DNA of 49,241 nt, taken from a virus. Taxonomy: Duplodnaviria > Heunggongvirae > Uroviricota > Caudoviricetes. Location of the stretch: IMG/VR virus record IMGVR_UViG_2721755711_000006; one strand, written 5' to 3'. The position numbers were made by a program. This document shows positions 24,001 to 30,000 of this stretch, piece by piece (within the stretch, counting starts at the first letter, position 1; every line of letters begins with the position of its first letter).

Positions 24001-27000
24001 TCCAGATCCAGTTGCCACCGCTGAACGGAAATGCGCAGCGCTGCATAGGCATACACCAGACAGTCCAGAGCTTCATTACGCCGTTTTCTGGCATCCCACT
24101 GGAGTTTCACCCGCCCGTTCACAACTTTTTCAACCAGCTCTTCTGCCACGAGTTGTTTAGCTTCAACATCAGAAAAAATGTCCGGGTTATCCGGAAAACG
24201 GAAGGTATACGGTGCGACTTCACTGGCAGATACCACCGGCAGGGCAAAACGCGCATACAGCATTTCCTTGACGGTATCGGAACCCACCTCACACAAAAAC
24301 ACCCCACGCTGGTTTCGCTTTTTTGGCATGGTGATCACCGGCTTGCCGTACACCGACGCCCCTTTGATGGGGAGCACAAAAAAAGTGCCGTGTTTTCTGG
24401 ATCGCTGATACACAATGTCCTGGTCAATACCACCGGTATCCCAGCAGACGCGGGAAATGGAAATTTCAGTGCCATCTGCATGACGGTATTTTTTCCGGAT
24501 CACGGCATCAACGCGTTTAAGGGTGTCCTCATCTTCCGGTCTCCCCATGATGATCTGCTTGTCAATCAGAAAAGCTTCTTCGCCAGGAGCCCAGCCCCAG
24601 ACATAAATCTCATAACGGTTTTTCTGAGAGTCAATCCCTGCGGTCAGGTAAACCACCCGCAGGGGAACCTGCGCATCATAGTGGCAGACTTTTTCCAGCA
24701 ACAACTCAAAGCTCAGTTTTTTTGCCACAGCCTCTTCATAAGGCTCCCCCAGCGTGGTGTTAATGAACGTCTTGACGCCATTCGGATCCTTCAGTGCATC
24801 AAGCCAGTCATAAACAATCTGTACCCAGGTGGTGAACGGGCTGTATGCCGTCCAGATGTGGTACGAGATTGAGCGCGGTGGCGGGATTTCCTCATCACCG
24901 GCGCTGTAAAATGTCAGACCGTCACGCGTCCACATCCCGGTATTGTCACAAATCCACCGCCCGTCGGTCTGGTCAAGTTCCGACTGACGGATCACGCAGC
25001 CATTATGTTCACACAGGTAATACACCGTCTCCGGCTTGCCCTTCTCCCATTTCAGGCCAAAGGTTGTCGCATCATCGCCAAACTTCAGATACTGGGCTTC
25101 ACCACAATGAGGGCATGGCACATAAAACCGCATAAAATGTGCAGATTCGTTCGCGGCTTTTTCAATCTGGCAAAAACCTTTAATTTTGGGCGTTGAGCCG
25201 CGTATGGATTTAGGCCATACCGAACCTTCGATACGCTTATCGCCAAGCAGAGTTGGTGAACCTTCTTTTTCCACATCCGGTTCAAACGAGGAGAGTTCGT
25301 CATAGCAGACCACATCCACAGATTTTTCACGGTAGTTTTTGGCAGCAGCTCCGCCCAGACACCAGAATCCCACACCGGAGGAGAAACGTTTCAGGGTAAG
25401 CGTGTTGTCCCGATGTTTTCTGCCAAACCACGGAGCCAGCTCCAGTAATACAGGAACGTCTCTTATCGTTGGTTCGACATGGGATTTCATAAAATCTTCT
25501 GCCGCAGAATCTGTCGGCTGAAAAAGCAGGCTGTTACGGGATTTGTGTTCAATAAAATAAGCCTCCACCCCCAACAGCATTTTGGTGTAACCAACACGCG
25601 CCGATTTAATCAGATTAACGGTGCGGATCCGGTCATTCCCCATGCTGTTCATGATGGCAACCTGAAACGGCAGTGTTTCCCATTGCCCGGGAGTATATGA
25701 AGACTCTTTTGGCAGATAATAATGCTGATCAGCCCACTGAACTGTCGTCAGTGGTACCGGAATATTGAGAGATACAAGCCCTGTTGCTATCGCACCGGCT
25801 GCATTAGCTGCCTTCTGTGCGTCTGAAATCATCAATCCACCCGCCTACGTTCTCACCAGCTTTAGCTGCAACGTTGGAGGCTTTTGCGATTTCAGTTTTC
25901 ACCACATCAAGGTGTGACGGTGAAATATCCGGATATTTACGCTGTAATGTCAGCGGCACACGTACAAGTATCCCCGAAATCTCCTGTGCCACACGTTGCA
26001 GAATGAAGGTAAACAATTCCGTTTCCAGTACCAGCCCTTCTTCGCGGGCATTTTTCAGTTCCTGTGCATCAGCCTGTGCTTTTGTGAGTCGGTAGCGTTC
26101 ATAGTCAATGGTGCCGGGTTGTAAATCTGATTCCGCAGCCGCACGCAAATCCTCGGTCTCTTTGCGGAGTTTTTCGTTTTCAATATCGGCTTCGCGTTGC
26201 GCATACCACTGAATTGCCATGGCGGTATCAAATACAGATTCAACCCCCTTACTACCACCAGAGACACAAGAGAGCCCCTGAGACTGCCAGCGTTCAATCG
26301 TTCGTGGATCCACGTTGAAAATTTCCGCGAGCTTCTTTTTATTAACCTTCATAAAACATTTCCATATCAAATGCAGGGTCCGACATGGAAGTGCTCAAAA
26401 ACGTCTTTTTCGGGCACTTTCATGTCGGACCTTTTACGGATGTGATTGATGAAAAAACAATGAGTTATACACGAGAAGTACCGACACGCTTTTTCCCGAA
26501 AAATTTTCATAAATAGCGAAAATCCGCGCCGCTGCCGCCCCGTGGCAGGCCTCCCCACCGGAAGGACCCGCACAAATGAGAACACCTGTCATTCATTAAA
26601 CAGGCAACAACGTGGCTGTTACAATCTCCGCCATATTCGCGTTAAGATCACATTCAACAGAAATTTCTTCATCCGTGGCATCCACTTCATATGTCCGGGA
26701 ATAACATTCCGTGCATTTACCACTGAAGATATCCTTAACCAGAACACGTCCACGCTGCAAAACCCTGAATGGAATCGTTCCGTTAAAGGGCTTTACGGTT
26801 ACCAGTAATCTCTTCATATCCCCTCCGGATAAAAATGCCCCTTGCCGCCCGGGCAGTTGCTTGATTCGGCAAGATTTAGAATGAACAAGATAAAATTGGT
26901 ACACGCAGCAGAATTTCATGCTTTCCGGACGCCGGCGCATCCTTCATTTTTCAGCAAAATATTCTGCTCTTACAGGCGATCAGTTCTGCATACACTGCCG

Positions 27001-30000
27001 GACACCATTGACAATTTCACAGACCTGAGAGGCAGCATCCAAAAGCTGACGCGCCCTATCCAGGCTGACGCATCCCGACAATAAAAAAGGCACCAGTATC
27101 GCTACCAGTGCCCATTTCGCCGCCGTTCGCGGCATTCTGTGTGTCCAGTGTTTTCGCGTCATATCACCACTCACGATTTCAGAGCAACAATCAACTTTGC
27201 CATCCCATACAGCATCGGAGACACGGCGATGCCGACCGCCACCCACTTAATGGCAAAAGCCACCGCTCTGCTGATGTCATCAGTTACAGGCGCTTTCAAT
27301 TCAAGGCCGTTTTTCATAGTCAACCTCAACAGAATTCGTTTATACTTCTCCATGTTCTCCCTTGCTTACTCAAGGTCAGAAACAGAAAACCCCGAACTGT
27401 TCCCGCAGCCGGGGTTTTTGCTTTTTATTTATCTGTATGGGCGCGACATCTTGCTATTTCATTCCGGGCTTCACTGTCGCCACGACAGATACAACGCGCC
27501 GTGTCACCGTTCAGTGTGATGATGTAGGCTTCATCCTCTTTTTCTACAGGAATGCACGGAATATTCCCGTCCCGGCAATACTCAATCTTCGCTGCAAGAT
27601 GAGTGTTACGCGGATAGAACTCCAGGCGGTACATATCCCCCAGGACATGCACTTCCTCAACATGACGACCGTCTTCTGTACCGTGATTTTCTTGAGTGCG
27701 TACATACGTACCTCCGTTCTTTCGTTTTTGAGTAATAAAAAAGGCCGCCGAAGCGACCTTTGTCAGAATTATTCACACCTTATGTCAGGATGTATGGCAA
27801 TCTCTGCAGCACCAGTAACATCCATTCACCCTCGTGTAACCCAGATTTTTTGCGGCCTTCACTGCCGGCTCACATGAGCTAAACTCTCCAAGCTCTTTAC
27901 GATTGTTTGCATCAGGAAGTCGAAAACATGTTTCTGTATGAACCTCATGATCGTTCTGATTATCTGTAAGAGTGTGAACATAGTACTTCATACGTATTTC
28001 TCCTTTTGGTTGCGTACGCCCAGGAGAAATTAAACGCAAAATACACTTAACTCATTGATAATGATCATTTTTAAATGCTATCACACAGCCACGCGCTCTT
28101 TCATCCAGCCATAGACAAACGACTCATTGGCCTCGCGTTTCTCTGCCAGCTCCAGATAACGCTCGCCCTGCGTACAGTTCAGGGCTTTCACCAGTACCAG
28201 TTCACCATCCCTGCTGCGATTTTTCAGATATGCCCGTAATGCATTAAGAGTACGCGGCCCGATGCGTCCATCTGCATCCATATCCGGATAGAGTTTCCCG
28301 CGCAGGTTGAAAACGTTCAGCCAGCGTTGAAGCATTCTGGACGCCACAGTTGGCCCCATGTTCACGCCCGTATCGCACAACTCTGCGGCAATATCAGGAG
28401 ACAGGTCCTCAACCTGGTCGAATCGTGGTCCGTACCAGTAGTCCGCCTCGAGTATTTCCAGCGCCTGCCCACGCGTCAGGTCACGCATATCGCCCTGATA
28501 ACCGTGTGCACGGGCAACTTTTTCAGTGATGCCCCATTTAGTCGGACCACCTTTATCATCCGGGTGATTGACGTAACCGCCCTCTTTTCCCAGAATTTCG
28601 TCAAAAATTTCATCTTTCGACTTCATATCAGCGCCTTCGTAATACAAGGATTTTTGATACGTTCCCGCGTGCTCGTATCACCAGCACGCAGAACACCAGG
28701 TTAATCAGGACGACCAGCCAGTTACCGGGTGGAAAGCGACCACACAGATAACAAAGCGGCGCAAAGGCATAAAGCAGCATCAGCAGCCAGGCCAGCCACG
28801 ACATCAGCGGTTTATGTCTCGACTCACCACGACGATAAAAAAAGAGCGTCAGCACGATAACCGTGCTTAACACCACATTCAGTAATCCGGGAAGGTTACT
28901 TAACATTACCGCCTCCACCCCGCAGACGGGAGAACAGCCCGGATACCAGCGATGCGATATCCTGCTGGTGGATGAATGAGAGAATCTTCACCGACACCAC
29001 CGATACCAGTACCGCGCAAAGCGCGTCGAGAGATGTGCTGTGGAGATTCAGTTTTTCAACCAGGTAAGACGCCATCACATCCGCCCCCAGCACGCCAACA
29101 ATGAACGACACCAGAAAATGCGCTGCCACACGCCAGACAGAAATCTTCTGTGGTATCGTGGCCACAAACAGCGCCCCTGCGAATGCACCAAACACAATCC
29201 CGAAATCCGTTCCGGTAAACAGCCCGAATACCGTCGCCCCGCCGAGCGCCGCAGCCGTGCCGGAACCGGATAAGGGTTCAGACATACTTTTTCTCCTGTA
29301 AATAAAAAAGGGCCTCTGTCGGCCCGTAAAAAAAACACCCCGTCAAAGGCACCCGCAGATACCTTTTGTGTGGTGTTATCTGGTGTTTTCTGATGTGGTG
29401 TGTACAGGACACAGATGTGAAAAAGGTCCGCCGGTACGAACCCTGTGTATGGATAAAAAAATGCCCGTCAGGAGACGGGCTAACGCATTCATCATGTAAG
29501 AGTTAAGCAGGATTACTTGTATCGAATTATCGGTATCAGAATGAGTCGTCAACCTGCAACCGCAATTCTGACGAATCGTAGGCCCCGGTACAGGCGACGA
29601 CTCATTCTGATAACGCATACCATTAACAATGTAAAAAACACAGCACTGAAACTGTAACCGGCCAGGCATTACAGAATGAAGAAAATAAAGTGTCCGCAAC
29701 CAGATTCTTCACGAAAATTCGCCAGTGCTGATAATAAAGCTATGACTCATCAGTTTTACTGGAGAGCGGGTGGCGGGAATCGAACCCGCATCATCAGCCT
29801 GGAAAGCTGAGGTAATAGCCATTATACGATACCCGCATACTGTGCTGGCTTCCGGAATCACACGAATTACCAGGAAAGCCAGCACTGGTCTTTCCGGTGG
29901 CAAGCAACACCCCTGTGAACATAAAGACAACCACCTTCCGGACCAGTCAGAATACTAACGACAGTTTTTCAGACATCAAAAATATATTTGGTGTTCAGTT

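Follow-up and report, generated by a model that had tools for sequence, protein, structure and literature searches.

The lambdoid prophage of IMG/VR record IMGVR_UViG_2721755711_000006 (49,241 nucleotides (nt), the whole of which is called the window here) carries no Rz/Rz1-like spanin pair and no unimolecular spanin (u-spanin) anywhere along its length, and a gene for a 60-amino-acid (aa) prolipoprotein, at 26980-27162 on the minus strand, probably serves the outer membrane (OM) step of lysis in some way. The comparison of related cassettes inclines us, on balance, to the view that this lipoprotein does so alone, as a single-component disruptor. An original prediction for the window had proposed the lipoprotein as part of a spanin equivalent, and for the lipoprotein itself the proposal has gained ground; in every related cassette it sits where a spanin would be expected, behind the endolysin, and it and Rz/Rz1 are mutually exclusive.

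Lysis cassette and spanin searches in the window

The genes of the cassette, with an RNA element inside the lipoprotein gene, are as follows.

28896-29285, minus strand: holin-like membrane protein, 129 aa (Phage_holin_8, PF16931, E 3.7e-22; phrog_198, E 1.5e-41)
28628-28906, minus strand: second holin-like protein, 92 aa, three transmembrane (TM) segments (Phage_holin_3_7, PF05449, E 8.4e-21; phrog_217, E 3.7e-35)
28081-28626, minus strand: soluble endolysin (Glyco_hydro_108 and PG_binding_3, Pfam E 1e-26 each)
26980-27162, minus strand: prolipoprotein, 60 aa (phrog_7528); lipobox LLSG/C31, mature part of 30 aa, helical, with invariant C48 and C57
27079-27113, minus strand: hairpin of 11 bp with GNRA loop and U-run within the signal-peptide codons of the lipoprotein gene (-17.9 kcal/mol, z = -3.9 against shuffles)

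The two holins and the GH108-type endolysin had been recognised at these coordinates in the original prediction, and the Pfam and PHROG matches bear this out. They make up the module typical of phage phiP27, a PF16931 holin, a PF05449 holin and an endolysin in that order downstream of Q, and the module order is identical in phiP27, in phiSTEC1575-Stx2k and in Escherichia coli R1. A prophage of E. coli R1 is 96% identical to this region, and the Shiga toxin (Stx) 2e phage phiP27 matches the window in the holin genes and in the lipoprotein gene (DNA match ~26908-27400).

Canonical spanins were looked for in the whole window, by screening each open reading frame (ORF) of the six frames, with all possible start codons considered, for lipoprotein signals, and by scanning the non-overlapping ORFs of a greedy longest-ORF selection for N-terminal TM segments. 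The sole credible lipobox ORF of the late region is 26980-27162, the greedy set holds no N-terminal TM segment except those of Lom, a porin and an SPFH lipoprotein, and neither scan yielded an Rz-like type II membrane protein. These scans, which include the TM and lipoprotein signal prediction that had been suggested as a check, agree with the earlier observation that no Rz-like ORF or embedded Rz1 is visible, and the i-spanin/o-spanin pair that would have contradicted it was sought in the window and not found. The claim that the cassette has no recognisable spanin holds insofar as there is no canonical pair, but the phiP27 ortholog of the lipoprotein has already been called an o-spanin (PMC6139136).

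That call was made in the spanin catalogue of Kongari et al. from 2018, which covers 677 phage genomes (PMC6139136) and lists phiP27 as a "separated" two-component spanin, the shortest of the set with 62 periplasmic residues. Its o-spanin at 20706-20861 is a bioinformatic call, with a 30-residue periplasmic part predicted to be 83% helical, and its i-spanin is placed at 20348-20542 (PMC6139136). The o-spanin is the ortholog of the window lipoprotein. The i-spanin ORF encodes 64 aa from a TTG start, belongs to no PHROG family, is antisense to a 90-aa ORF with a full-length match to phrog_36812, occurs in 4 of 84 and 1 of 80 related loci, and is absent from the window. We searched for it in all loci and rejected it as a partner of the lipoprotein, given its lack of conservation and its position antisense to the phrog_36812 gene. 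From these comparisons the published o-spanin call seems a reasonable lead, and the i-spanin call looks spurious, an apparent artefact. Within the phiP27 locus as collected (L002), the i-spanin ORF and the antisense 90-aa gene lie at 3795-3989 and 3779-4051 and the lipoprotein gene at 4077-4232; the latter is unannotated in GenBank, where the coding sequence L32 runs across its 5' part in a different frame. Our literature search for orphan o-spanins or lysis lipoproteins of this sort found nothing relevant.

Conservation and position of the lipoprotein gene

The protein had been described as a lipoprotein of ~50 aa with two periplasmic Cys. The lipoprotein and its two Cys stand, but the precursor has 60 aa, starting at an upstream ATG (27162), 8 nt beyond the stop codon of the gene before it; the nine codons added at the N-terminus are conserved at the protein level as far as Yersinia, with a ratio of nonsynonymous to synonymous polymorphism (pN/pS) of 0.23. 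The gene is intact in all 149 copies, which comprise 75 distinct nucleotide sequences, and its pN/pS of 0.25 compares with 0.26 for the holin. Invariant across the family are G30 and C31, the Gly-Cys of the lipobox, together with C48 and C57. The residue at +2 is Val in the window and V, A, T, S or G among the aligned sequences, never Asp. Signal peptide and mature part are equally well conserved, and the conserved stretch of the former takes in a long basic n-region (MxRKHWTHRxPR). The mature peptide of 30 residues is amphipathic (hydrophobic moment, muH, 0.55-0.65), proline-free and of net charge 0 (family range -1 to +3), and it ends in a hydrophilic sequence (...GVRQCMQN) without a TM segment. 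C48 and C57 would lie on opposite faces if the helix is continuous, which would favour intermolecular links. Unlike the other intact small genes of the region, the lipoprotein gene shows no good Shine-Dalgarno (SD) sequence.

The protein matches the phrog_7528 profile over its full length (E 9e-37, 60 of 60 positions), as do the divergent members P0120 and P0133. It has no Pfam family at E <= 0.1, Lysis_col included, and no NCBIfam match; PDB sequence searches gave nothing significant. Among known o-spanin families the best match is phrog_6073 at E 0.043 over residues 20-56, which take in signal peptide and most of the mature peptide, and phrog_1275, the o-spanin family of mEp390, is not matched at all. 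The family is narrow, with 119 clusters at 90% identity and 22 at 50% among 1.84 billion proteins, and its hosts are exclusively Escherichia, Salmonella, Citrobacter, Yersinia and Lelliottia or their phages. An exhaustive profile search with the family alignment returned 22 clusters of the same enterobacterial family and fragments, and no distant spanin-linked relatives. The gene is present in 313 of 5,426 complete E. coli genomes.

The hairpin at 27079-27113 is formed by the codons for WALVAILVPFLL, followed by UUUUUUAUU. Its stability exceeds that of 99.4% of synonymous recodings of the segment, its nucleotides are near-invariant in 57 distinct sequences despite divergence elsewhere in the gene, variants of its loop still conform to GNRA, and synonymous diversity is halved in this part of the gene. 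No sigma-70-like promoter was found on the same strand in 26300-29800. The hairpin is possibly an intrinsic terminator that limits full-length mRNA to Q-antiterminated late transcripts, and a terminator inside the ORF would fit a toxic late lysis protein, not a moron expressed in the lysogen.

Loci were collected in three ways, with the best 80 taken per query and 4 found by a narrower-alignment scan of genome contigs, and were condensed to 145 distinct regions, each of which includes 1.5 kb or more of upstream sequence. The lipoprotein gene lies downstream of an endolysin gene in all of them (M15 peptidase in 93, GH108 in 49, CHAP-like in 2), at a distance of 40 nt or less in 65 of the 145, and the minimal form is a four-gene cassette of holin, holin, endolysin and lipoprotein (e.g., locus L010). 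The M15 peptidase or CHAP-like enzyme of the sister cassettes stands in place of the GH108 endolysin and the lipoprotein is kept. The Phage_holin_8 holin pair is found in 92% of the regions and other holins in the remainder; a Lelliottia-type branch, divergent at 40-60% identity, has an unrelated phrog_126 protein as its holin and again retains the lipoprotein, whose start lies within ~15 nt of the endolysin stop in the best-resolved cassette. A homolog of the window-type Nu1 was detected in only about one-third of the loci, and the downstream packaging modules are variable. Since it is kept with three endolysin types and two unrelated holin systems, the lipoprotein gene tracks an endolysin as such and no particular holin, endolysin, terminase or tail module.

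The reverse comparison, which started from 80 loci chosen by the PF05449 holin alone, gave 66 loci with the lipoprotein, 5 with a lambda-type Rz/Rz1 in its place, 5 with neither and 4 that were truncated. Lipoprotein and Rz/Rz1 occur together in none of the 80 (Fisher p = 1.4e-5, a value inflated by the relatedness of the loci). Two of the five loci with neither are prophages of the heat-labile enterotoxin LT-II, with toxin genes after the endolysin. LT-II enterotoxin prophages of this kind (L161, L163 and L088, the last being Rac-SA53) have the same holin pair and GH108 endolysin with the toxin genes directly next, and neither the lipoprotein nor Rz/Rz1. Only one of the 145 lipoprotein regions, that of GER2, has an Rz1-type lipobox ORF, and its lipoprotein frame is broken. 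In this Stx phage (L089) the frameshifted lipoprotein remnant, at 3488-3681, lies downstream of an intact S-R-Rz/Rz1 set. The remnant is consistent with redundancy of the two apparent outer-membrane functions.

The same slot can be recognised in other comparisons. Phages mEp390 and HK639 have the same holin pair upstream of small Rz-like spanins, and their order of holin, holin, endolysin, i-spanin/o-spanin and a gp53-like gene compares with holin, endolysin, lipoprotein and a gp53-like gene in L174. In L142 the endolysin is followed by Rz/Rz1 and a homolog of p73, the 73-aa protein that follows the lipoprotein in the window. By megablast, L142 shows no DNA-level similarity to L055 or to the window downstream of the endolysin, so the argument from shared flanks rests on protein-level matches. 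A partner was sought by clustering all plus-strand ORFs of at least 35 aa in the 145 regions, from -2.6 kb to +1.5 kb of the lipoprotein gene; this turned up no universal membrane-anchored family besides the lipoprotein and no conserved type II membrane ORF.

A candidate outer membrane disruptor and its alternatives

We infer the lipidation, OM sorting, disulfide oligomers, membrane-disrupting activity and trigger that make up the following scheme. The gene would be transcribed with the late operon under Q antitermination, and the 60-aa precursor would be exported, lipidated at Cys31 and cleaved by signal peptidase II. Val, Ala, Ser or Thr at +2 directs lipoproteins to the outer membrane, and with Val at this position the Lol system should sort the protein to the inner leaflet of the OM, where the 30-residue helical peptide would accumulate, probably as disulfide-linked oligomers. 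The two holin-like proteins would release the GH108 endolysin and the murein would be destroyed; the lipopeptide would then destabilise the outer membrane and the cell would burst, without a phage inner-membrane partner. By simple arithmetic the 29 residues past the acylated Cys reach ~4 nm as a helix and ~10 nm if fully extended, and the periplasm is roughly 20-25 nm wide. A single-component, OM-resident disruptor is favoured because 29 residues cannot bridge the periplasm and there is no conserved partner. Kongari et al. emphasised that spanins form disulfide-linked oligomers (PMC6139136), to which the two invariant Cys of the lipoprotein offer a parallel.

In its fullest form the hypothesis is one that we put forward tentatively, with doubt outweighing conviction. 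It would hold that a 30-residue disulfide-bonded OM lipopeptide suffices alone for OM rupture and constitutes a third mechanistic class next to the spanins, which act by membrane fusion, and disruptin, which is a soluble cationic peptide, that it is perhaps gated by its own in-ORF terminator, and that in enterobacterial prophages, Stx2e and Stx2k phages among them, it has taken the place of Rz/Rz1 repeatedly.

Several points weigh against a lysis role, or against one performed alone. The evidence for it is all positional and comparative. The loci, as the best 80 per query, are closely related and not phylogenetically independent, which inflates the exclusivity statistic, and an OM disruptor may be dispensable in these phages because five cassettes lack both the lipoprotein and Rz/Rz1. 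Mutants of lambda in Rz lyse when no Mg2+ is added. The mature lipopeptide is not cationic and resembles neither colicin lysis proteins nor known o-spanins nor disruptin, so the proposed activity is without sequence precedent. The AlphaFold (AF2) model is a single long helix of low confidence (predicted local distance difference test (pLDDT) 68), which does not decide between C48-C57 pairing within and between chains. The lipoprotein may also have a partner in the host or in a distant part of the phage genome. Finally, small phage OM lipoproteins may be exclusion or virulence factors, of which Llp, Cor and Bor are examples.

This last point leads to a reading that we consider unlikely yet worth taking seriously, in which the lipoprotein is a moron unrelated to lysis, acting in superinfection exclusion, receptor masking or host fitness, and the phages simply do without an OM disruptor. 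Such phage lipoproteins do exist; in lambda, bor lies just past Rz/Rz1, the interval between endolysin and cos is a moron hotspot in these phages, and the LT-II toxin prophages have the same holins and endolysin with neither lipoprotein nor Rz/Rz1. However, the gene is linked to the lysis module and not to tail or receptor-binding genes, while the packaging modules beyond it vary, and it is kept in 66 of the 76 informative cassettes of the reverse comparison, unlike its sporadic neighbours. Its exclusivity with Rz/Rz1 and its decay in the one phage that has Rz/Rz1 speak against this reading as well, as do the lack of a sigma-70-like promoter and the terminator-like hairpin in the ORF, which tell against lysogenic expression. 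A toxin or exclusion role, which had also been raised for these genes, fits the context data of the lipoprotein poorly.

It is likewise improbable, in our estimation, that the lipoprotein is the o-spanin half of a true two-component spanin with a host protein, a holin-like protein or a distant phage gene as its partner. The hallmarks of an o-spanin are present in the lipobox, the periplasmic cysteines and the lysis-cassette location, the phiP27 ortholog has been filed in this way, and the spanins of relatives are small (the mEp390 i-spanin has 91 aa). The partner search nevertheless found no conserved type II membrane ORF around the gene in the 145 regions and the window offers no candidate, the holin that could serve as a partner differs between branches of the family, the 29 residues fall well short of the periplasmic width, and the published phiP27 i-spanin is not conserved and lies antisense to a real gene.

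Comparison with known systems helps to place the single-component disruptor that we prefer. The two-component spanins (lambda Rz/Rz1; phrog_1026 with phrog_1275 in mEp390 and HK639) share with the lipoprotein the position of the cassette's last gene, an OM lipoprotein signal and conserved periplasmic Cys, and lipoprotein and Rz/Rz1 are interchangeable in sister cassettes. Unlike them, the lipoprotein comes without an i-spanin gene, whether embedded, overlapped or separated, cannot span the periplasm and has no homology to a spanin PHROG. Rz1 has 40 aa with 10 Pro, whereas the mature lipoprotein has 30 aa and is helical and proline-free. The unimolecular spanin gp11 of T1 is also a single gene in lysis-cassette position with an N-terminal lipoprotein signal, but the lipoprotein lacks its C-terminal TM domain and beta-rich periplasmic domain and has about one-fourth of its length. 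The exclusion and fitness lipoproteins, T5 Llp, phi80/N15 Cor and lambda Bor, resemble it as small phage-encoded OM lipoproteins with a disulfide; their genes either neighbour those for tail or receptor-binding proteins or are active in the prophage, whereas the present gene tracks the endolysin, alternates with Rz/Rz1 and has an internal hairpin.

The nearest functional analogues appear to be the colicin lysis lipoproteins, or bacteriocin release proteins (BRPs; Lysis_col, PF02402), followed by disruptin, with no sequence relationship to either. BRPs have precursors of ~45-60 aa and lipopeptides of ~28-33 aa and permeabilise the envelope without an inner-membrane partner; the size of the lipoprotein and the absence of a partner, as read from the genes, fit this format (mature ~27-35 aa). 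The signal peptide of BRPs is stable and active, and the unusually conserved signal peptide of the lipoprotein family is a further likeness. The differences are a lack of sequence similarity, the absence of the two extra Cys from BRPs, and the location of BRP genes in an SOS-controlled colicin operon as opposed to a phage late operon. Disruptin is reportedly neither exported by a signal peptide nor lipidated. It is cationic, whereas the mature lipoprotein has a net charge of ~0 and is made with a lipoprotein signal peptide; what the two would have in common is spanin-free OM disruption by a short amphipathic helical coliphage peptide (disruptin, phiKT gp28; bioRxiv 10.1101/515445).

In approximately 13-15% of the phages that infect Gram-negative hosts no spanin can be identified, and disruptin is the only alternative demonstrated so far. 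What would be new here is a lipoprotein lysis gene without an i-spanin, previously mis-filed as one half of a two-component spanin. If the proposal is correct, lipoprotein lysis genes need not be halves or fusions of periplasm-spanning fusogens, the published phiP27 spanin annotation would be corrected, and the gene would provide a minimal OM-permeabilising module for biotechnology and bear on toxin release from Stx and LT-II prophages. The gene is present in E. coli itself and in sequenced phages that include the Stx2e phage phiP27. Should it turn out not to be a lysis protein, these widespread prophages would offer clear-cut cases of lysis without a spanin in a model host.

Neighbouring small genes and the prophage

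The other small genes between endolysin and cos, with their terminator-like elements, are listed here from the endolysin onwards.

27785-27991, minus strand: Cys/His-rich protein of 68 aa, cys68 (phrog_4298), with a strong SD (AAGGAG)
27740-27761, minus strand: intrinsic-terminator-like hairpin and U-run after the 68-aa gene (-14.0 kcal/mol, z = -4.6)
27425-27705, minus strand: 93-aa gene (phrog_33497; ATG 27705), broken by a 1-nt deletion
27378-27423, minus strand: terminator-like hairpin after the 93-aa gene (-20.7 kcal/mol, z = -3.0), its plus-strand version also being seen
27171-27353, minus strand: tail-anchored membrane protein of 60 aa (phrog_1115, E 1.1e-41), SD GGGAG
26596-26817, minus strand: cos-proximal 73-aa protein, p73 (segment of phrog_2571, E 3.5e-28), SD GGAGGGG

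All ORFs named in the original prediction are present on the minus strand at the positions it assigned. The five small ORFs, lipoprotein included, all match PHROG families of unknown function, which makes them more than chance ORFs, and pN/pS values of 0.19-0.41 in related loci show purifying selection on them; Pfam, NCBIfam and PADLOC gave no match for these five proteins and a 44-aa neighbour. SD sequences were found before the starts at 27991, 27705, 27353 and 26817.

The 60-aa TM protein had been paired with the lipoprotein as a non-canonical spanin. Its sole hydrophobic segment is C-terminal, with 2-3 residues at most beyond the helix, and its N-terminal 29 residues contain 7 Lys/Arg and no signal peptide, so that this part most likely stays cytoplasmic. 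The gene occurs in ~50% of the lipoprotein regions and is absent from all 65 in which the lipoprotein abuts the endolysin. In PhiR5_2 the signal-anchor-release (SAR) endolysin R and a canonical embedded Rz/Rz1 flank a copy of 92% identity and a 43-aa TM gene next to it; in GER2, too, a homolog (45% identity) lies between R and Rz/Rz1. In E. coli R1 the 60-aa gene is parted from the lipoprotein gene by a 44-aa TM gene. Although the two genes of the window lie 8 nt apart and could be translationally coupled, a spanin made of this pair is very hard to credit when one member is missing from about half of the cassettes, accompanies Rz/Rz1 in two phages, is parted from the other by a further gene in E. 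coli R1 and most likely keeps its N-terminus in the cytoplasm.

By these comparisons the 60-aa TM protein is a frequent accessory of lysis cassettes, optional as are the other three small genes, and not a spanin subunit; a role in timing at the holin level is speculation. Six PhiR12 phages also carry the gene (92% identical). A two-gene module of 60 aa (phrog_1115) and 43-44 aa (phrog_4906) lies between the endolysin and the OM-disruptor gene at 3043-3371 of PhiR5_2 (L003) and at 3535-3869 of E. coli R1 (L001), and the window retains only its first gene. Lcc6 of the Shewanella phage LambdaSo is an example of an extra lysis factor; with an N-terminal TM helix and a cytoplasmic C-terminus its topology is opposite to that of the 60-aa TM protein, and it was rejected as a relative.

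The 68-aa protein, with invariant H18, C22, C40, C58, C61 and C65, is probably a zinc-binding cytoplasmic moron. Its AF2 model is confident (pLDDT 82), a small beta-beta-beta-alpha-beta arrangement with no fold match in the PDB, and possibly represents a new small zinc-binding fold. Compared with E. coli R1 and phiSTEC1575-Stx2k, the 93-aa gene is one A short after codon 9, and it is otherwise identical to the E. coli R1 copy; the deletion is either a recent pseudogene mutation or a sequencing error. Two Cys-rich ORFs had been reported in this interval. The one at 27785-27991 stands, but that at 27425-27652 is the out-of-frame 3' part of the 93-aa gene; its PHROG match spans profile positions 20-94 only, and the SD lies before the gene's own start at 27705, with no good one before the shorter ORF. 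The 68-aa gene is found in 12 of the 84 and 27 of the 80 related loci and p73 in 11 of the 84 and 8 of the 80, and the frequencies of cys68, the 93-aa gene and p73 among related cassettes all fall in the range 6-34%. The three behave as sporadic morons outside the core lysis machinery, and cys68 and the 93-aa gene have a moron layout because each is followed by its own terminator hairpin; the suggestion that some of the small genes are morons is thus upheld for these three by sporadic presence, and for the first two by their terminators as well.

Nearly all phage genes of the window are on the minus strand, in the order Q, a porin moron (on the plus strand), a DNA methylase, tRNA-Gly, the lysis cassette, cos, Nu1, the large terminase subunit, an E-type capsid gene, tail genes and Lom. 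Further features of the window are given below.

1-483: smpB
698-1060: transfer-messenger RNA (tmRNA) gene
6266-6886, minus strand: Ail/Lom protein, in the tail region
26530-26541, minus strand: cosN-like sequence GGGCGGCAGCGG, with a lambda-like cosB downstream, then Nu1
29764-29836, minus strand: tRNA-Gly, anticodon TCC, between methylase and holin
31957-33063, plus strand: Gram-negative porin gene, on the opposite strand between Q and methylase
33244-33627, minus strand: Q antiterminator
44805-45632, plus strand: SPFH/Band 7 lipoprotein of 275 aa beside the IS110 transposase, the other lipobox match of note
45802-46821, plus strand: IS110-family transposase

The cos site lies ~55 nt downstream of 26596 (...ACGGGGCGGCAGCGG...TTTTCGCTATTTATGAAAATTTT) and is followed by Nu1 (Pfam E 2.6e-83); we take its sequence to resemble cosN and cosB of lambda. 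The prophage adjoins smpB and the tmRNA gene and appears to be integrated at or near ssrA, because these two genes stand at the left end and the integrase gene, ~47 kb away, at the right end. This tyrosine integrase gene (48042-49241) leaves the window at its right end. In phiP27, tRNAs and stx2e are found at the position equivalent to that of the window tRNA-Gly.

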